Source: Escherichia coli (GTDB lineage Bacteria > Pseudomonadota > Gammaproteobacteria > Enterobacterales > Enterobacteriaceae). Taken from it: a stretch of DNA of 64,000 nucleotides. The notes under the pieces are model-generated. The model saw only the letters and a list, made by a program, of their open reading frames with translations, was not told where the DNA came from and searched no databases. The stretch lies in NCBI RefSeq assembly GCF_046105845.1, contig NZ_CP151004.1. One strand, written 5' to 3'. Below are positions 41,909 to 62,132 of this stretch, piece by piece (position 1 is the first letter of the stretch; every line of letters starts with the position of its first letter). The translations under genes and the position numbers were made by a program.

Positions 41909-43230
41909 TGCCTAAACTTGTCACTTGGATGAACAACCAGCGGGTAGGCGAGTTAACGAAGTTAGCCAATGGCGCGCACACCTTTAAGTATGCACCGGAG
42001 TGGTTAGCTAACCGTTATGCCAGACCGTTGTCACTTTCGCTGCCATTGCAGAGGGGGAATATCACCTCTGATGCCGTATTTAACTTCTTCGATAACCTGT
42101 TACCCGATAGCCCGATTGTACGTGACCGGATCGTTAAACGTTATCATGCCAAATCCAGACAACCGTTTGATTTATTGTCAGAAATAGGGCGAGACAGCGT
42201 TGGTGCCGTGACGTTAATACCCGAAGACGAAACCGTAACGCATCCGATAATGGCATGGGAAAAGCTTACTGAAGCCAGACTTGAAGAAGTATTAACGGCT
42301 TATAAAGCAGATATCCCTCTGGGCATGATTAGAGAAGAAAATGACTTTCGCATCTCGGTTGCTGGCGCGCAGGAGAAGACAGCGCTGCTCAGAATAGGCA
42401 ATGACTGGTGCATTCCGAAAGGAATAACGCCGACGACGCACATCATTAAATTACCGATTGGCGAAATCAGGCAGCCCAATGCGACGCTCGATCTCAGCCA
42501 AAGCGTTGATAATGAGTATTACTGTCTGCTGCTGGCGAAAGAACTTGGGTTGAATGTTCCGGACGCAGAAATCATTAAAGCGGGAAGGGTGCGCGCGTTA
42601 GCGGTCGAACGTTTTGACAGGCGTTGGAATGCTGAGCGAACGGTTTTACTTCGCTTGCCACAGGAGGATATGTGTCAGACATTCGGTTTACCTTTATCGG
42701 TGAAATATGAATCAGATGGAGGCCCAGGCATCGCGCGGATCATGGCTTTTTTGATGGGGTCCAGCGAGGCGCTGAAAGATCGCTATGATTTTATGAAGTT
42801 TCAGGTGTTCCAGTGGTTGATTGGCGCAACGGATGGCCATGCAAAAAACTTCTCCGTATTTATTCAGGCTGGCGGCAGTTATCGACTCACGCCATTTTAC
42901 GACATCATTTCAGCATTTCCGGTATTGGGTGGCGCAGGAATACACATCAGCGATCTCAAACTGGCAATGGGGCTTAACGCATCCAAAGGCAAAAAAACGG
43001 CAATCGATAAAATTTATCCGCGACATTTTCTGGCGACAGCAAAGGTGCTGAAATTTCCGGAAGTGCAGATGCATGAAATCCTGAGTGACTTTGCCAGAAT
43101 GATTCCGGCAGCACTGGATAACGTGAAGACTTCATTACCGACAGATTTTCCGGAGAACGTGGTGACGGCAGTTGAAACAAATGTGTTGAGGTTGCACCGT
43201 CGGTTAAGCCGAGAATACGGTATTAAGTAA
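41908..43230 (+). CDS. hipA: Serine/threonine kinase toxin HipA
   Basis: ORF 41851..43230; conserved start MPKLVTWMNNQRVGELTKLANG at 41908 (440 aa), overlapping the hipB stop by 1 nt. Gly22 is wild-type; the autophosphorylation-site context RISVAGAQEKTAL is present. Confidence 0.93.
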   Translation: MPKLVTWMNNQRVGELTKLANGAHTFKYAPEWLANRYARPLSLSLPLQRGNITSDAVFNFFDNLLPDSPIVRDRIVKRYHAKSRQPFDLLSEIGRDSVGAVTLIPEDETVTHPIMAWEKLTEARLEEVLTAYKADIPLGMIREENDFRISVAGAQEKTALLRIGNDWCIPKGITPTTHIIKLPIGEIRQPNATLDLSQSVDNEYYCLLLAKELGLNVPDAEIIKAGRVRALAVERFDRRWNAERTVLLRLPQEDMCQTFGLPLSVKYESDGGPGIARIMAFLMGSSEALKDRYDFMKFQVFQWLIGATDGHAKNFSVFIQAGGSYRLTPFYDIISAFPVLGGAGIHISDLKLAMGLNASKGKKTAIDKIYPRHFLATAKVLKFPEVQMHEILSDFARMIPAALDNVKTSLPTDFPENVVTAVETNVLRLHRRLSREYGIK

Positions 43231-53691: not shown

Positions 53692-54453
53692 ATGTCGCTC
53701 GTTTGTTCTGTTATATTTATTCATCATGCCTTCAACGCTAACATTTTAGATAAAGATTACGCCTTCTCTGACGGCGAGATCCTGATGGTAGATAACGCTG
53801 TTCGTACGCATTTTGAACCTTATGAGCGGCATTTCAAAGAAATCGGATTTAATGAAAATACCATTAAAAAATATCTACAATGCACTAACATCCAGACAGT
53901 GACGGTGCCTGTTCCTGCGAAGTTTTTACGTGCTTCAAATGTACCGACTGGATTGCTTAATGAAATGATTGCTTATCTCAACTCGGAAGAACGCAATCAT
54001 CATAATTTTTCAGAACTTTTGCTTTTTTCTTGCCTGTCTATTTTTGCCGCATGCAAAGGTTTCATTACACTATTAACTAACGGTGTGCTATCCGTTTCCG
54101 GGAAAGTGAGAAATATTGTCAACATGAAGCTGGCGCACCCATGGAAGCTGAAAGATATTTGTGACTGCCTGTACATCAGTGAAAGCCTGCTCAAGAAAAA
54201 ACTAAAGCAAGAGCAAACGACATTCTCACAGATTCTTTTAGATGCCAGAATGCAGCACGCAAAAAATTTGATACGCGTAGAAGGTTCTGTTAATAAAATT
54301 GCCGAACAATGTGGTTATGCCAGTACATCTTATTTTATTTATGCGTTCCGCAAACATTTCGGCAACAGTCCGAAGAGAGTTTCTAAGGAGTACCGTTGTC
54401 AAAGGCACACGGGAATAAATACGGGCAACACGATGAATGCTTTAGCTATTTGA
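53692..54453 (+). CDS. ydeO: AraC-family acid-resistance regulator
   Basis: 253 aa with C-terminal AraC HTH; matches YdeO. Confidence 0.92.
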   Translation: MSLVCSVIFIHHAFNANILDKDYAFSDGEILMVDNAVRTHFEPYERHFKEIGFNENTIKKYLQCTNIQTVTVPVPAKFLRASNVPTGLLNEMIAYLNSEERNHHNFSELLLFSCLSIFAACKGFITLLTNGVLSVSGKVRNIVNMKLAHPWKLKDICDCLYISESLLKKKLKQEQTTFSQILLDARMQHAKNLIRVEGSVNKIAEQCGYASTSYFIYAFRKHFGNSPKRVSKEYRCQRHTGINTGNTMNALAI

Positions 54454-56588: not shown

Positions 56589-57746
56589 ATGCACGTTACA
56601 GCCAAGCCCTCCAGTTTTCAATGTAATCTCAAATGTGATTACTGTTTTTACCTTGAAAAAGAGTCGCAGTTTACTCATGAAAAATGGATGGATGACAGCA
56701 CTCTGAAAGAGTTCATCAAACAATATATCGCAGCGTCTGGCAATCAGGTCTATTTTACGTGGCAAGGCGGTGAACCCACTCTGGCTGGTCTGGATTTTTT
56801 CCGTAAAGTTATTCACTATCAACAACGCTATGCAGGCCAAAAACGTATTTTTAATGCATTACAAACGAATGGCATTTTATTGAATAATGAATGGTGTGCC
56901 TTTCTCAAAGAACATGAGTTTCTGGTTGGTATCTCGATCGATGGACCCCAGGAGCTACATGACCGTTACAGACGCAGTAATTCAGGTAACGGTACTTTTG
57001 CAAAAGTGATAGCAGCCATCGAGCGTCTGAAATCATTTCAAGTAGAGTTTAATACGTTAACCGTCATTAATAACGTTAATGTCCATTACCCTCTTGAGGT
57101 TTATCATTTTTTAAAATCTATCGGCAGTAAACATATGCAATTTATCGAATTGCTCGAAACCGGGACGCCGAATATTGATTTCAGTGGTCATAGTGAGAAC
57201 ACATTCCGTATCATTGATTTTTCTGTGCCTCCTACGGCTTATGGCAAGTTTATGTCGACCATTTTTATGCAATGGGTTAAAAACGATGTGGGTGAAATTT
57301 TCATCCGTCAGTTTGAAAGCTTTGTCAGCCGTTTTTTGGGGAATGGGCATACCAGTTGTATTTTCCAGGAGTCCTGCAAGGATAATCTGGTTGTTGAAAG
57401 TAATGGAGACATTTACGAATGCGACCATTTTGTCTATCCACAGTACAAAATTGGAAACATTAATAAATCTGAACTCAAAACGATGAACAGTGTTCAACTG
57501 ACAGCGCAAAAAAAACGGATTTCAGCGAAATGTCAGCAATGTGCATATAAACTTATCTGCAATGGCGGTTGCCCTAAGCATCGTATTACTAAAGTAAACA
57601 ATGAGACTGTTTCCTATTTTTGCGAAGGTTATAAAATCCTTTTTTCAACCATGGTACCTTATATGAACGCCATGGTGGAGTTAGCCAAGAACAGAGTACC
57701 GCTTTACCACATTATGGATGTTGCAAAACAAATGGAGAATAATTAA
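56589..57746 (+). CDS. ydeM: Anaerobic sulfatase-maturating enzyme (radical SAM)
   Basis: ORF 56574..57746; start [21 protein letters not shown] (56589) contains the CxxxCxxC radical-SAM motif; 385 aa. Confidence 0.9.
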
Positions 57747-58003
57747 TAACGCTCCTTCTTTGCTCCAGTCTTAGCCTCCGTCTTATGACCTTAACAAAGC
57801 ACCCGACATAAATTCCTGTTGGGTGTTTCGTCATCATCATCTTCCCTTGCGAAAATCCTGGCTTACGTGGTATGCGTCAGGGCATTAGCAATATCCTTGA
57901 TTATCAATAGCATAACCATAACCACTGAAAATGAAATATTCCTTTATATTTCATATTGTTAAATGATACTTAAATAAATTTCATCAGTAAATCATTGCCA
58001 TAG

Positions 58004-58048
58004 ATAATCATTGGATGGCACAATCAATTTTCGCTAATGATAACCATT
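58004..58048 (+). promoter_or_regulatory. Two Fur-box-like motifs (GATAATCATT at ~58004-58013 and AATGATAACCATT at ~58036-58048) at the yddA 5' end
   Basis: Compared by eye to the Fur consensus GATAATGATAATCATTATC; the second motif overlaps the annotated yddA ATG. Confidence 0.4.
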
Positions 58049-59722
58049 CCCATTACGTTTCGTATGTTGATAGCAAAGTATCTCTGTCTGCTGAAGCCCT
58101 TTTGGCTGCGTAAGAATAATAAAACTTCAGTGCTGTTAATCATTATTATCCTCGCCATGATCCTTGGCGTGGTTAAAATTCAGGTCTGGTTAAACGACTG
58201 GAATAATGATTTTTTCAATGCGCTAAGCCAGAAAGAAACCGATAAGCTTTGGCAGCTTGTTCTTTGGTTCCCTGCCCTGCTGGGGATCTTTGTATTAATA
58301 TCCGTAAACAAAACATGGTTAATTAAACTACTGACTATTCGCTGGCGCGAATGGTTAACAGATTACTACCTTAATCGCTGGTTTGCAGATAAAAACTACT
58401 ACTTCACGCAAATCTACGGCGAGCATAAAAATACAGATAACCCTGACCAACGTATCGCTGAAGACATTCTCTTACTGATCAGTAAAACGCTCAGCCTTTC
58501 ATTTGGCTTCATCCAGTCGCTTAGCATGCTGATCACCTTTACCGTTATTCTTTGGCAAAGCGCGGGTACGCTCTCATTCACTGTTGGTGGAACAGAATGG
58601 AATATCCAGGGGTATATGGTCTATACCGTCGTGCTCATTGTGATCGGTGGAACTTTATTTACTCATAAGGTGGGTAAACGTATTCGTCCGCTTAATGTGG
58701 AAAAACAACGTAGCGAAGCGACATTTCGAACTAATCTTGTGCAGCATAATAAGCAGGCTGAACTGATTGCGCTAAGCAATGCTGAGTCTCTACAACGCCA
58801 GGAGTTGAGCGACAATTTTCATACCATTAAAGAGAACTGGCATCGTTTAATGAATCGTCAGCGGTGGCTTGATTACTGGCAGAATATTTATTCGCGCTCG
58901 CTTAGCGTTCTTCCCTACTTTCTGTTATTGCCACAGTTTATTAGCGGACAGATCAATCTGGGCGGACTGATGAAATCGCGCCAGGCATTTATGCTGGTAT
59001 CGAACAATTTAAGCTGGTTTATTTATAAATATGATGAACTTGCTGAACTGGCTGCGGTTATCGATCGCTTGTATGAGTTCCATCAACTCACCGAACAGCG
59101 CCCTACGAATAAGCCTAAAAATTGCCAACATGCGGTACAAGTGGCTGACGCGAGTATTCGTACTCCTGATAATAAGATCATATTAGAGAACCTAAACTTT
59201 CATGTTTCGCCAGGCAAATGGCTATTACTGAAAGGTTACTCTGGTGCGGGAAAAACCACACTGCTTAAAACATTATCCCACTGCTGGCCGTGGTTTAAAG
59301 GTGATATTTCTTCTCCTGCTGACAGTTGGTATGTGTCACAAACACCGTTAATCAAAAGCGGCTTACTGAAAGAGATTATTTGTAAAGCACTTCCCCTGCC
59401 CGTAGACGATAAATCGTTGAGCGAAGTACTGCATCAGGTTGGTTTGGGGAAATTGGCTGCGCGTATTCATGACCACGATCGCTGGGGAGATATTCTTTCC
59501 AGCGGCGAAAAACAACGCATCGCGCTGGCACGATTAATTTTACGACGTCCGAAATGGATATTTCTTGACGAAACTACCTCTCATCTTGAGGAACAAGAGG
59601 CTATCCGCTTACTGTGTTTAGTGCGTGAAAAACTACCCACAAGCGGCGTCATTATGGTTACACATCAACCCGGTGTCTGGAACCTGGCCGATGATATTTG
59701 TGACATTAGCGCGGTTTTATAA
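58037..59722 (+). CDS. yddA: Fused ABC transporter permease/ATPase (SbmA/BacA-like)
   Basis: 561 aa; N-terminal TM domain and C-terminal ABC ATPase (GYSGAGKTT Walker A, LSSGEKQR signature). Confidence 0.9.
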   Translation: MITIPITFRMLIAKYLCLLKPFWLRKNNKTSVLLIIIILAMILGVVKIQVWLNDWNNDFFNALSQKETDKLWQLVLWFPALLGIFVLISVNKTWLIKLLTIRWREWLTDYYLNRWFADKNYYFTQIYGEHKNTDNPDQRIAEDILLLISKTLSLSFGFIQSLSMLITFTVILWQSAGTLSFTVGGTEWNIQGYMVYTVVLIVIGGTLFTHKVGKRIRPLNVEKQRSEATFRTNLVQHNKQAELIALSNAESLQRQELSDNFHTIKENWHRLMNRQRWLDYWQNIYSRSLSVLPYFLLLPQFISGQINLGGLMKSRQAFMLVSNNLSWFIYKYDELAELAAVIDRLYEFHQLTEQRPTNKPKNCQHAVQVADASIRTPDNKIILENLNFHVSPGKWLLLKGYSGAGKTTLLKTLSHCWPWFKGDISSPADSWYVSQTPLIKSGLLKEIICKALPLPVDDKSLSEVLHQVGLGKLAARIHDHDRWGDILSSGEKQRIALARLILRRPKWIFLDETTSHLEEQEAIRLLCLVREKLPTSGVIMVTHQPGVWNLADDICDISAVL

Positions 59723-59759: not shown

Positions 59760-62132
59760 ATGAAGCGAGTTCTTATTCCTGGCGTCATTTTATGTGGCGC
59801 TGATGTGGCGCAGGCCGTCGATGACAAAAACATGTACATGCATGTTTTTGAAGAGATGACGGTCTATGCTCCTGTCCCTGTACCCGTAAACGGCAACACG
59901 CATTACACCAGTGAAAGCATCGAGCGTTTACCGACCGGGAATGGCAATATCAGCGATCTGCTGAGAACAAACCCTGCGGTACGCATGGATTCAACGCAAA
60001 GTACCTCGTTGAACCAGGGAGATATTCGCCCGGAGAAAATCTCTATTCACGGTGCGTCGCCCTATCAGAATGCCTATTTGATTGACGGTATTAGTGCAAC
60101 TAACAACCTGAATCCAGCGAATGAGTCCGATGCCAGTAGTGCAACCAATATTAGCGGGATGTCACAGGGGTATTATCTTGATGTCAGCTTACTGGACAAT
60201 GTGACGCTTTATGACAGTTTTGTGCCGGTTGAATTCGGTCGCTTCAATGGCGGGGTAATTGATGCAAAGATCAAACGCTTCAACGCTGATGATAGCAGCG
60301 TGAAACTGGGTTATCGCACTACGCGTTCGGACTGGTTAACATCGCATATCGATGAGAATAACAAGAGCGCATTTAATCAAGGTTCTTCAGGAAGTACTTA
60401 TTTCTCTCCAGATTTTAAAAAGAACTTTTATACCTTGTCGTTTAATCAGGAACTGGCTGATAACTTTGGCGTTACTGCCGGTTTATCGCGCCGCCAGTCT
60501 GATATCACCCGCGCGGATTATGTTTCGAATGACGGCATTGTCGCCGGTCGGGCACAGTATAAAAATGTTATCGATACCGCATTGAGCAAATTTACCTGGT
60601 TTGCCAGCGACCGCTTTACCCACGATTTAACCTTAAAATATACCGGCTCCAGTCGTGATTATAATACCAGCACCTTCCCGCAGTCTGATCGCGAAATGGG
60701 TAATAAATCCTACGGTCTGGCATGGGATATGGATACGCATCTCGCATGGGCCAAACTACGTACCACCGTTGGTTGGGATCATATTAGTGATTATACCCGT
60801 CACGATCATGACATCTGGTACACCGAACTTTCATGTACATATGGTGATATTACAGGGCGTTGCACCCGTGGCGGATTAGGACACATTTCCCAGGCTGTAG
60901 ATAATTACACCTTCAAAACACGCCTGGACTGGCAAAAATTCACCGTGGGTAATGTTTCGCATCAACCCTACTTCGGCGCGGAATACATCTATTCCGATGC
61001 ATGGACTGAACGCCATAACCAGTCTGAATCCTATGTGATTAATGCTGCCGGAAAGAAAACTAACCATACCATTTACCATAAAGGTAAAGGCAGCCTGGGA
61101 ATTGACAACTACACGCTGTATATGGCGGATCGCATTAGCTGGCGTAATGTGTCATTAATGCCCGGCGTGCGGTATGACTATGACAACTATCTGTCAAACC
61201 ACAATATCTCCCCGCGCTTTATGACGGAATGGGATATTTTTGCTGATCAAACCTCAATGATTACCGCAGGTTATAACCGTTACTATGGCGGGAATATTCT
61301 TGATATGGGATTACGTGATATCCGCAATAGCTGGACGGAATCGGTATCAGGCAATAAAACCCTGACGCGTTATCAGGATTTGAAAACGCCTTATAACGAT
61401 GAACTGGCAATGGGATTGCAGCAAAAAATCGGTAAGAACGTTATTGCGCGCGCAAACTATGTTTACCGTGAAGCGCATGATCAAATCAGCAAAAGCAGTC
61501 GTACCGACAGCGCGACTAAAACCACCATTACTGAATATAACAACGACGGCAAAACCAAAACGCATTCGTTCAACCTCAGTTTTGAACTGGCCGAACCCCT
61601 GCATATCAGCCAGGTAGATATTAACCCGCAAATTGTCTTTAGCTATATCAAGAGCAAGGGCAACTTGTCGTTAAACAATGGTTATGAGGAAAGCAATACC
61701 GGTGATAACCAGGTGGTTTATAACGGTAATCTGGTCTCTTACGATAGCGTTCCAGTGGCAGATTTTAATAACCCATTAAAGATCTCCTTAAACATGGATT
61801 TCACGCATCAACCGAGCGGGTTGGTGTGGGCGAATACGCTGGCCTGGCAAGAAGCGCGTAAAGCTCGCATTATCCTTGGTAAGACAAATGCGCAATACAT
61901 CAGTGAATATTCAGATTACAAGCAGTATGTTGACGAAAAACTGGATAGCAGCCTGACCTGGGACACCCGCTTGTCCTGGACGCCACAATTTCTGAAACAA
62001 CAAAACCTGACGATCAGTGCCGATATTCTCAATGTACTGGATAGCAAAACCGCGGTTGATACAACGAATACCGGTGTGGCGACCTACGCCAGTGGCCGTA
62101 CTTTCTGGCTTGATGTCAGCATGAAATTTTAA
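59760..62132 (+). CDS. yddB: TonB-dependent outer-membrane receptor-like protein
   Basis: 790 aa with signal peptide and C-terminal ...FWLDVSMKF; matches YddB. Confidence 0.9.
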   Translation: MKRVLIPGVILCGADVAQAVDDKNMYMHVFEEMTVYAPVPVPVNGNTHYTSESIERLPTGNGNISDLLRTNPAVRMDSTQSTSLNQGDIRPEKISIHGASPYQNAYLIDGISATNNLNPANESDASSATNISGMSQGYYLDVSLLDNVTLYDSFVPVEFGRFNGGVIDAKIKRFNADDSSVKLGYRTTRSDWLTSHIDENNKSAFNQGSSGSTYFSPDFKKNFYTLSFNQELADNFGVTAGLSRRQSDITRADYVSNDGIVAGRAQYKNVIDTALSKFTWFASDRFTHDLTLKYTGSSRDYNTSTFPQSDREMGNKSYGLAWDMDTHLAWAKLRTTVGWDHISDYTRHDHDIWYTELSCTYGDITGRCTRGGLGHISQAVDNYTFKTRLDWQKFTVGNVSHQPYFGAEYIYSDAWTERHNQSESYVINAAGKKTNHTIYHKGKGSLGIDNYTLYMADRISWRNVSLMPGVRYDYDNYLSNHNISPRFMTEWDIFADQTSMITAGYNRYYGGNILDMGLRDIRNSWTESVSGNKTLTRYQDLKTPYNDELAMGLQQKIGKNVIARANYVYREAHDQISKSSRTDSATKTTITEYNNDGKTKTHSFNLSFELAEPLHISQVDINPQIVFSYIKSKGNLSLNNGYEESNTGDNQVVYNGNLVSYDSVPVADFNNPLKISLNMDFTHQPSGLVWANTLAWQEARKARIILGKTNAQYISEYSDYKQYVDEKLDSSLTWDTRLSWTPQFLKQQNLTISADILNVLDSKTAVDTTNTGVATYASGRTFWLDVSMKF

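Follow-up and report, generated by a model that had tools for sequence, protein, structure and literature searches.

The region in front of yddA very probably constitutes the Fe2+-Fur-repressed promoter and operator of the yddA-yddB-pqqL operon, and its functional operator occupies positions 58033-58057, just past a predicted sigma-70 promoter. Positions refer to the window, the whole 64,000-nt stretch of Escherichia coli DNA (NZ_CP151004.1) that was analyzed. The Fur operator at yddA has already been published; our additions are a revision of the yddA start codon and the finding that a nearby palindrome is not conserved. Fur repression of yddA-yddB-pqqL is regulation of the textbook type and has been shown repeatedly (Subashchandrabose 2013, PMC3855560; Beauchene 2015, PMC4676285; Banerjee 2020, PMC7157518; Gao 2023, PMC10164565), so its confirmation adds little. 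The practical value lies in a corrected promoter picture, in which the operator would occupy the start of transcription together with the leader, and translation of YddA would begin further downstream.

Organization of the yddA-yddB-pqqL Locus

The features of the locus are listed in Table 1. YddA comprises a membrane domain of the SbmA/BacA type fused to an ABC ATPase (Pfam families of homologues: PF05992, PF06472 and PF00005). The gene following yddB is pqqL, and co-transcription has been demonstrated (PMC3855560). The order yddA-yddB-pqqL was identical across all orthologous loci. On the other side, yneP, which overlaps the 3' end of ydeM and is listed among newly annotated small proteins of E. 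coli (PMC6001520), is divergent from yddA. The intergenic region upstream of yddA (290 bp, 63% A+T) is therefore a divergent promoter region.

Table 1. Features of the yddA promoter region and adjacent genes (window coordinates).
Feature	Position	Strand	Description and basis
yneP	57712-57840	-	Small protein, 42-aa ORF in window; annotated YneP in K-12
Distal Fur-like island TGATTATCAATAGCATAACCATAACCA	57898-57924		PWM 8.42 bits, rank 28
Perfect 9-bp inverted repeat	57931-57954		ATGAAATAT (57931-57939), 6 nt, ATATTTCAT (57946-57954)
Predicted sigma-70 promoter of yddA	57995-58024	+	Sole promoter-like match upstream of yddA on this strand
Partial Fur-like 10-mer GATAATCATT	58003-58012		In promoter spacer; exact string match
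Main Fur operator	58033-58057		25 bp; a pair of 19-bp Fur boxes that overlap with a 6-bp offset
Fur box 1 GCTAATGATAACCATTCCC	58033-58051	+	18.78 bits, rank 1 of ~128,000 positions
Fur box 2 CGTAATGGGAATGGTTATC	58039-58057	-	15.09 bits, rank 3 of ~128,000 positions
yddA, annotated ORF	58037-59722	+	First operon gene; ORF list and annotation
Annotated YddA codons 1-9 (MITIPITFR)	58037-58063	+	Most likely untranslated 5' leader
yddA CDS with revised start	58064-59722	+	552 aa; ORF, annotation and start-codon evidence
Fur-like site inside yddA GCTGTTAATCATTATTATCCTC	58132-58153		14/19 to consensus, 7.87 bits, rank 35
yddB, TonB-dependent receptor	59760-62132	+	Second gene of the Fur-repressed operon; ORF and annotation

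Sequence, Occupancy and Conservation of the Main Fur Operator

The ~128,000 positions of the window were scanned with a Fur position weight matrix (PWM) that was trained on the whole intergenic regions of 16 other classical MG1655 Fur promoters, with yddA excluded. ChIP-exo peaks were dropped as a training set; many of them lay 100-250 bp off the real box and held no Fur motif. The top-ranked site of the scan, GCTAATGATAACCATTCCC, scored in the upper third of the leave-one-out scores of the training sites (8.4-22.5 bits). Further, this site matched the classical consensus at 15 of 19 positions, tied best of all positions scanned, and matched the ChIP-exo-derived motif TGAnAATnATTcTCA at 11 of 13 positions. 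The probability of such a site in a 320-bp sequence of local composition was 0.0015. Together with the overlapping box on the opposite strand, it forms an operator of about four GATAAT-like hexamers. The preliminary description of this region had pointed to the core of this box, AATGATAACCATT, as a Fur-like motif, and an exact string search placed the core at 58036-58048, a stretch that includes the annotated yddA ATG (58037). The PWM rank, the published box and the ChIP peaks described below all bear out that reading, and the coordinates of both Fur-like motifs and of the inverted repeat in that description were exact.

A PWM match by itself is no proof of a Fur site. A match about as strong (18.2 bits) lies inside the ydeO coding sequence at 54102-54120, and another strong one lies inside that of hipA at 42508-42526; no Fur ChIP-exo peak is reported at ydeO and no Fur peak at hipA. 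Both are probably chance matches.

The box at yddA published in 2013, GGGAATGGTTATCATTAG, corresponds to positions 58034-58051 read on the opposite strand and was reported alongside derepression of the operon in a fur mutant (PMC3855560); a yddA box was also detected with a PWM in another study (PMC4145685). We placed published ChIP peaks on the window by coordinate conversion. The Fur ChIP-exo peak of MG1655 (1577347-1577374) corresponds to about 58028-58055, that of W3110 (1581039-1581051; annotated ATG at 1581056) to 58042-58054, and the ChIP peak of CFT073 (1765013; ATG at 1765014) to 58038. Thus, published peaks and derepression concern this very promoter, at the same locus and with the same sequence.

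Deletion of fur changed expression by a log2 ratio of 3.06 in MG1655 and 6.93 in W3110, which corresponds to ~8- to 120-fold derepression of the operon. Derepression upon fur deletion was reported in 8 of 9 strains and was ~52-fold in CFT073. In K-12, the operon counts among the listed Fur targets (PMC4676285), yddA is a member of the Fur-2 iModulon, and the iron chelator bipyridine raises the level of PqqL protein (PMC6793856). The published derepression, the ChIP data and the induction of PqqL by the chelator, with which the PWM and the ortholog sites agree, uphold the earlier suggestion of iron-responsive control by Fur. In LB, dipyridyl or added iron alone left the transcript levels of CFT073 unchanged, unlike deletion of fur, and the operon was induced more than 30-fold in urine (PMC3855560). 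Further, fur-minus strains exhibited O2-dependent differences, plus an effect of RyhB (PMC4676285); Fur is therefore not the sole input.

We compared seven yddA-receptor-protease operons (about 51-97% protein identity; loci at 97, 95, 89, 65, 58, 54 and 52%). The best Fur site was always located just upstream of yddA, with top PWM scores of 17.4-24.4 bits (18-24 bits in the five loci at 52-89% identity) and starts 29-67 bp upstream of the gene. The main operator itself was conserved across Escherichia lineages and in the ortholog with 89% identity (L023). In Escherichia sp. E1V33, the box carries three substitutions and keeps its score at 18.82 bits. Of the 5426 complete genomes of E. coli, 4609 contained the 77-bp segment of promoter and box at a minimum of 95% identity.

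Promoter and Start Codon of yddA

The predicted promoter consists of a -35 element TTGCCA (57995-58000), an 18-bp spacer and an extended -10 element TGgCACAAT (58016-58024), in which the hexamer CACAAT is weak; the -10 element ends 8 bp before the main Fur box. The 89% ortholog retains the -35 element (as TTGCAA), the 18-bp spacing and TGGCACAAT, while the flanking bases diverge. From this arrangement, transcription of yddA would start near 58031-58033. No yddA transcription start was retrievable from the literature: our search found no experimental start, and the Cappable-seq supplements gave no coordinate within this region. The placement of the box with respect to +1 is thus a prediction. 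The box immediately follows the predicted promoter and so probably extends from about +1 to +25, over the transcription start and leader. When iron is present, Fur dimers on 58033-58057 would leave RNA polymerase unable to initiate or to escape, and the lack of iron or of Fur would derepress the operon; we infer this occlusion step.

The preliminary description had raised the question of whether the true yddA start is a downstream ATG, and the comparison of sequences favored the ATG at 58064. The pattern of substitutions switched to that of coding sequence at this position: of the variable columns in 58037-58063, 8 were nonsynonymous and 1 was synonymous, whereas codons 10-109 had 12 nonsynonymous and 61 synonymous ones (Fisher p = 2.7e-5). 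The 89% ortholog carries an in-frame TAG between the two candidate ATGs. Further, all homologues begin 10-12 residues before a (K/R)PFW motif, as does E. coli YddA when it starts at M10, and codons 2-9 of the annotated N-terminus did not behave like coding sequence shared with orthologues. Most likely, then, yddA starts at 58064, 27 nt downstream of the annotated start. The upstream frame from 58037 was open in all Escherichia sequences examined and a Shine-Dalgarno sequence was recognizable before neither ATG; some initiation at 58037 alongside 58064 is possible.

With the start at 58064, the Fur box falls in the leader instead of over the start codon, and the ATG at 58037 would belong, within that leader, to the Fur consensus AATGATAA and would not be the initiation codon. 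This changes the reading of published descriptions, which place the "box over the start codon". YddA is probably nine codons shorter than in GenBank, RefSeq and UniProt, which affects reporter fusions, expression constructs and structural models.

Accessory Fur-Like Elements, the Palindrome and Alternative Readings

Besides the main operator, three weaker Fur-like elements were found: the 10-mer in the promoter spacer, the site inside yddA and the distal island. The site inside yddA, GCTGTTAATCATTATTATCCTC, was invariant in six Escherichia sequences and coincides with a second MG1655 ChIP-exo peak, P46, which converts to about 58135-58169. Several other second peaks of that data set lack any Fur box, and peaks of this kind make P46 less certain. 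The sequence is possibly a secondary Fur site or possibly a by-product of the Ile/Leu-rich coding sequence. The distal island contains an 11-bp palindrome, TTGATTATCAA (57897-57907), and its TGAT-ATCAAT bases were invariant in Escherichia even where the flanks had diverged. The island is repeated in inverted orientation at 57996-58010 (13/15) and in direct orientation at 58040-58052, and it resembles a degenerate copy of the Fur region next to yddA; no MG1655 ChIP-exo peak is reported at the island. A miniature transposable element with ends at 57898-57912 and 57996-58010 was considered and rejected, as there was no target duplication and the repeat was degraded in L017. The three elements may extend or stabilize the binding of Fur, and the data can be explained without them.

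The spacer element had been described as a second Fur box, in which case repression might need both boxes, for example with Fur spreading from -30 to +25. This is doubtful, despite a position between -35 and -10 that is classic for a repressor. GATAATCATT agrees with ten consecutive bases of the Fur consensus without a mismatch (one of five such 10-mers in the window) and adjoins the main box, and its chance occurrence within 60 bp of local-composition sequence has P≈0.008; the AATCATT of this region was invariant in Escherichia sequences, and a similar 10-mer recurs inverted at 57899-57908. However, as a full 19-bp site it matched only 12 of 19 positions and scored 0.37 bits (rank 585), so that PWM scoring, which had been proposed as a check, supported the main box and not this one. 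Its GATAAT hexamer reads GACAAT and GTCAAT in two Escherichia lineages (GACAATCATT and GTCAATCATT at 58003-58012), and in the 89% ortholog an unrelated sequence, AACTACTCAC, stands in its place while promoter and main box are retained. Further, the ChIP-exo footprints of MG1655 and W3110 start at about 58028 or later, past this element. By these comparisons, GATAATCATT does not appear to be a self-standing Fur box. That the Fur-like sequences as a whole arose by chance in AT-rich intergenic DNA and play no regulatory role is a practically negligible possibility: the A+T content and the strong matches elsewhere in the window that lack reported binding would allow it, but it is contradicted by the rank and local probability of the main site, the three ChIP data sets on it, the derepression in fur deletions and the strong sites preceding all orthologous operons.

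The inverted repeat had been described as lying about 85 bp upstream of yddA and as suggesting, together with the Fur-like motifs and the TonB-dependent receptor yddB, iron-responsive control. The repeat is indeed perfect, with 83 bp from the end of its right arm to the annotated ATG; its link to iron control found no support. It could be the operator of a second dimeric regulator, with or without TTGATTATCAA, that mediates Fur-independent control (by O2 or in urine) or controls yneP. Such regulation has been reported (PMC4676285; PMC3855560), the center of the palindrome lies within the divergent promoter region, at a distance of ~90 bp from the inferred yddA start and ~100 bp from yneP and upstream of both, and its right arm and the TTGATTATCAA island were conserved within Escherichia. 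A perfect 9-bp repeat with a loop of up to 12 nt is mildly unexpected: when the 290-bp intergenic region was simulated with a Markov model, 2.2% of the runs contained one (P≈0.022, uncorrected for the number of feature types that might have drawn attention). Nevertheless, we regard a second regulator as quite unlikely. The left arm carries one change in L016 and three in L017, none of them compensated, and the repeat is absent from the 89% ortholog; the symmetry is therefore not under selection. Compared by eye with the CRP, FNR, ArgR and IHF consensus sequences, the palindrome and TTGATTATCAA had the wrong spacing or half-sites, and our literature search found no report of a second regulator binding at the yddA promoter. 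A function as an RNA hairpin, either as terminator or stabilizer for read-through from ydeM or as part of the yneP 5' leader, is very improbable. A 9-bp hairpin folds on either strand (z-scores of -3.3 and -3.9 versus shuffles), but its stem is all A-U and weak (-6 to -6.9 kcal/mol), and no compensatory changes maintain the pairing. No terminator-like call was made at 57931-57954, where there is neither a G+C-rich stem nor a T run, and the single match in an Rfam scan of 57400-58400, to a Bacillus sRNA, stayed below threshold at 27 bits (gathering score, 60). The palindrome is best read as a lineage-specific or chance feature. A combined arrangement, with a multi-site Fur operator (57898-57924, 58003-58012, 58033-58057 and 58132-58153) and a second regulator on the palindrome and TTGATTATCAA, is unlikely. 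If true, the second regulator would explain why urine induces the operon independently of iron and why fur-minus strains differ with O2, and yneP would possibly be co-regulated.

Comparison With Classical Fur Operators and the Fus System

Like the classical Fur operators of fhuA, fepA-fes, cirA, fiu, tonB and fhuF, the yddA operator is a 19-bp box of the GATAATGATAATCATTATC type built from GATAAT-like hexamers, scores within the range of classical sites (18.8 bits) and mediates repression under iron-replete conditions; it would also overlap the predicted start site, as classical boxes overlap the core promoter or start site. In contrast to classical operators, which lie over -35/-10, the yddA box is located just downstream of the predicted -10. 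Further, the 3' half of the yddA box is degenerate (ATTCCC versus ATTATC), and yddA has a possible second site ~100 bp into its coding sequence. The published yddA descriptions that we read do not mention the palindrome or the accessory Fur-like elements.

The operon would encode an iron acquisition system of the protein-import type related to ferredoxin uptake (Fus) of Pectobacterium, which has related import clusters associated with proteases. YddB, the TonB-dependent receptor, and PqqL, an M16 protease, are under iron regulation and have FusA and FusC as structural homologues (Grinter 2019, PMC6793856); the likeness concerns the cargo genes only, not the regulatory element. In iron-limited LB, E. 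coli deletion mutants grew without a defect (PMC6793856). For uropathogenic E. coli, the yddA-yddB-pqqL operon acts as a fitness factor during systemic infection (PMC3855560), which gives exact coordinates of its regulatory and coding parts some applied use.

Fur control of the yddA-yddB-pqqL operon

The preliminary description had placed two Fur-box-like motifs, GATAATCATT and AATGATAACCATT, and a 9-bp inverted repeat at the yddA-yddB-pqqL promoter, from which it suggested iron-responsive control. All three strings were found where it had put them. Because of the placement of the small-protein gene yneP, the interval that it covered (57747-58060) takes in the divergent intergenic space separating yneP from yddA, together with the opening bases of annotated yddA.

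Features around the yddA promoter and Fur-like matches elsewhere in the window
Feature	Coordinates	Strand	Remark
hipA match	42508-42526		within hipA coding sequence
GAAAGTGAGAAATATTGTC	54102-54120		within ydeO coding sequence
ydeO-ydeN-ydeM		+	upstream of yddA
yneP	57712-57840	-	overlaps ydeM 3' end, convergently
Distal block TGATTATCAATAGCATAACCATAACCA	57898-57924
TGATTATCAAT	57898-57908		includes 11-bp palindrome TTGATTATCAA
Inverted repeat, left arm ATGAAATAT	57931-57939		6 nt before right arm
Inverted repeat, right arm ATATTTCAT	57946-57954
Predicted -35, TTGCCA	57995-58000	+	18-bp spacer
GATAATCATT	58003-58012		in promoter spacer
Predicted -10, CACAAT	58019-58024	+	after TG
Main Fur box GCTAATGATAACCATTCCC	58033-58051
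Second Fur 19-mer	58039-58057		opposite strand to main box, 6-bp offset
AATGATAACCATT	58036-58048
yddA (annotated ORF)	58037-59722	+
yddB	59760-62132	+
pqqL		+	after yddB

The core of the Fur interpretation has been published before and has experimental support. The three genes are co-transcribed, induced more than 30-fold in urine and derepressed in a fur mutant, and the Fur box given in that paper, when reverse-complemented, equals window 58034-58051 (PMC3855560). ChIP-seq and expression data identified yddAB-pqqL as a direct Fur target in K-12 (PMC4676285), as it is in CFT073, with a peak at 1765013 and about 52-fold derepression (PMC7157518). A ChIP-exo study of nine strains reported Fur binding, and for eight of them it gave log2 fold changes between 1.9 and 6.9 (PMC10164565). 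Further, yddA was flagged by a matrix scan in an ExPEC study (PMC4145685), and bipyridine raises PqqL protein (PMC6793856). To these reports the present analysis adds a probable mis-annotation of the yddA start, a putative location of the operator within the leader of a conserved promoter, a downgrading of both GATAATCATT and the inverted repeat, and evidence suggesting Fur control in distant orthologs.

The main Fur box

We built a 19-bp Fur matrix from the best site per intergenic region of 16 classical MG1655 Fur-controlled regions (fhuA, fepA-fes, fepD-entS, fepB-entC, fiu, fhuE, tonB, sufA, ydiE, cirA, nrdH, exbB, feoA, ryhB, fecA and fhuF-yjjZ), with yddA left out. The main box scored 18.78 bits, the highest of about 128,000 window positions; among the leave-one-out scores of the training sites (8.4 to 22.5) it falls in the top third. 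Its score was attained in 0.15% of simulated 320-bp sequences of local composition. The overlapping second 19-mer ranked third (15.09 bits). Against the classical consensus the main box matched at 15/19 positions, the joint best in the window. The hipA match, also 15/19 (13.5 bits), is probably due to chance. The ydeO site scored 18.2 bits, nearly equal to the yddA box, and has no listed ChIP-exo peak in the MG1655 data; it must be a look-alike without function or else a Fur site that has gone unreported.

Published ChIP peaks were converted to window positions using the annotated yddA start of each RefSeq record. The W3110 peak (1581039-1581051; ATG at 1581056) corresponds to 58042-58054 and the CFT073 peak (ATG at 1765014) to 58038. 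The MG1655 peaks are in older coordinates, and an offset of +1977, which puts the tonB, cirA, fiu and feoA peaks on their boxes, brings 1577347-1577374 to about 58028-58055. Thus, the peaks of all three strains fell on the main box. In the text version of the MG1655 sheet of Dataset 2 of PMC10164565, rows P37-P48 carry gene labels that are one row off relative to the coordinates; for example, acnA stands against the peak at the tonB promoter, and of the two yddA peaks one has a blank label and the other reads uxaB. The second yddA peak (1577233-1577267, about 58135-58169) lies within yddA, where GTTAATCATTATTATCCTC matches the consensus at 14/19 positions (7.9 bits). This peak should be taken cautiously, because many second peaks of that data set have no Fur motif and the DNA beneath it codes for a membrane segment rich in Ile and Leu, the codons of which resemble Fur boxes by their nature. 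Overall, the original observation holds and its Fur interpretation is correct.

Predicted promoter and operator position

On the + strand ahead of yddA, the extended -10 promoter listed in the table is the sole promoter-like match. At the orthologous locus with 89% YddA identity (L023), the flanks have diverged, but the locus still has TTGCAA, a spacing of 18 bp and TGGCACAAT, with the Fur box 7 bp further on. A search of the literature found no experimentally mapped yddA transcription start. The conserved position of the predicted promoter would put the start near 58031-58033 and the operator, 58033-58057, at about +1 to +25, on the leader, a placement that is new here. Fe2+-Fur binds this operator, about four hexamers with room for two Fur dimers, immediately downstream of the extended -10 and would thereby block initiation; the repression is lifted when iron is limiting or Fur is lost. 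Reported further inputs are RyhB and O2 (PMC4676285) and a signal in urine (PMC3855560), none of which is assignable to a sequence element on present evidence.

The other two elements fared less well. GATAATCATT is an exact consensus 10-mer, uncommon within 60 bp of sequence of local composition (P≈0.008). Widened to a 19-bp site, it matched at 12/19 positions and scored 0.37 bits (rank 585); two Escherichia lineages have GACAATCATT and GTCAATCATT at this position, and L023 has other sequence there. It was demoted as a Fur site. Simulating the intergenic region yielded such an inverted repeat in 2.2% of runs. The one seen here is intact solely in E. coli proper, where the region as a whole is about 98% identical in any case. 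Escherichia sp. MOD1-EC7003 has one uncompensated change per arm, E1V33 has three in the left arm, and L023 lacks the repeat. As RNA it forms a weak all-A-U hairpin that is not terminator-like, and no RNA family matches the region. We therefore demoted it as well.

TGATTATCAAT is better conserved than the inverted repeat. It scored 8.4 bits and repeats 57996-58010, in the spacer region, in inverted and degenerate form (13/15); ATAACCATAACCA, which follows it, repeats the 3' half of the main box (58040-58052) in direct orientation. The distal block thus resembles a degenerate duplicate of the proximal operator. It may be a weak accessory Fur site; the ChIP-exo data report no peak there.

The yddA start codon

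The preliminary description had asked whether the true yddA start is a downstream ATG, and three lines of evidence point to ATG 58064. In L023, the ATG within the Fur box is followed six codons on by an in-frame TAG, and the gene starts at the equivalent of 58064. In 12 of 14 homologues (37-89% identity; for one over-called sequence its internal Met was taken), the called start lies 10-12 residues before a conserved (K/R)PFW motif, and the remaining two have shorter called N-termini; in E. coli the distance is 10 residues from M10 versus 19 from the annotated M1. Further, codons 2-9 contained 8 nonsynonymous and 1 synonymous variable columns, versus 12 and 61 in codons 10-109 (eight sequences; Fisher p = 2.7e-5), so that the first nine annotated codons (58037-58063) behave like non-coding sequence. 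The start in GenBank, RefSeq and UniProt is probably 27 nt too far upstream. A clear Shine-Dalgarno sequence is missing at both ATGs and the frame upstream of 58064 is open in the Escherichia sequences, so that minor initiation at 58037 may occur alongside.

Conservation of the operon and its Fur box

When species-representative genomes were scanned and a protein search was run, operons of yddA, receptor and M16 protease genes emerged at 97, 95, 89, 65, 58, 54 and 52% YddA identity. In all seven, the best matrix match of the locus (17.4-24.4 bits) begins 29-67 bp upstream of the yddA start, measured in the Escherichia loci from the revised start. The box of Escherichia sp. E1V33 kept a score of 18.82 bits despite three substitutions. 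Of 5426 complete E. coli genomes, 4609 contain the 77 bp that run from the -35 to ATG 58064, each at 95% identity or more. Fur control thus appears to go with this operon across distant orthologs, as judged from these matches.

The locus also varies among E. coli strains (genomes H2 and H14). IS1 lies between ydeM and yddA in some, and in others yddA-yddB is deleted, with the M16 peptidase gene directly adjoining ydeM. The yneP ORF of the present strain has two additional N-terminal Met codons and several substitutions (e.g. LRMELKE to LRLEQRR) relative to K-12 YneP. A contig binned as 'Candidatus Nanosynbacter' (JARKOR010000108.1) carries a ydeM-yddA-yddB region 99% identical to that of E. 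coli and is almost certainly mis-binned E. coli. The 65% operon (L024, 1-2500) lies beside a Rep3-type replication gene, an integrase and an IS21 helper gene, which suggests that this copy is plasmid-borne; eight matches among E. coli genomes are likewise located on plasmids.
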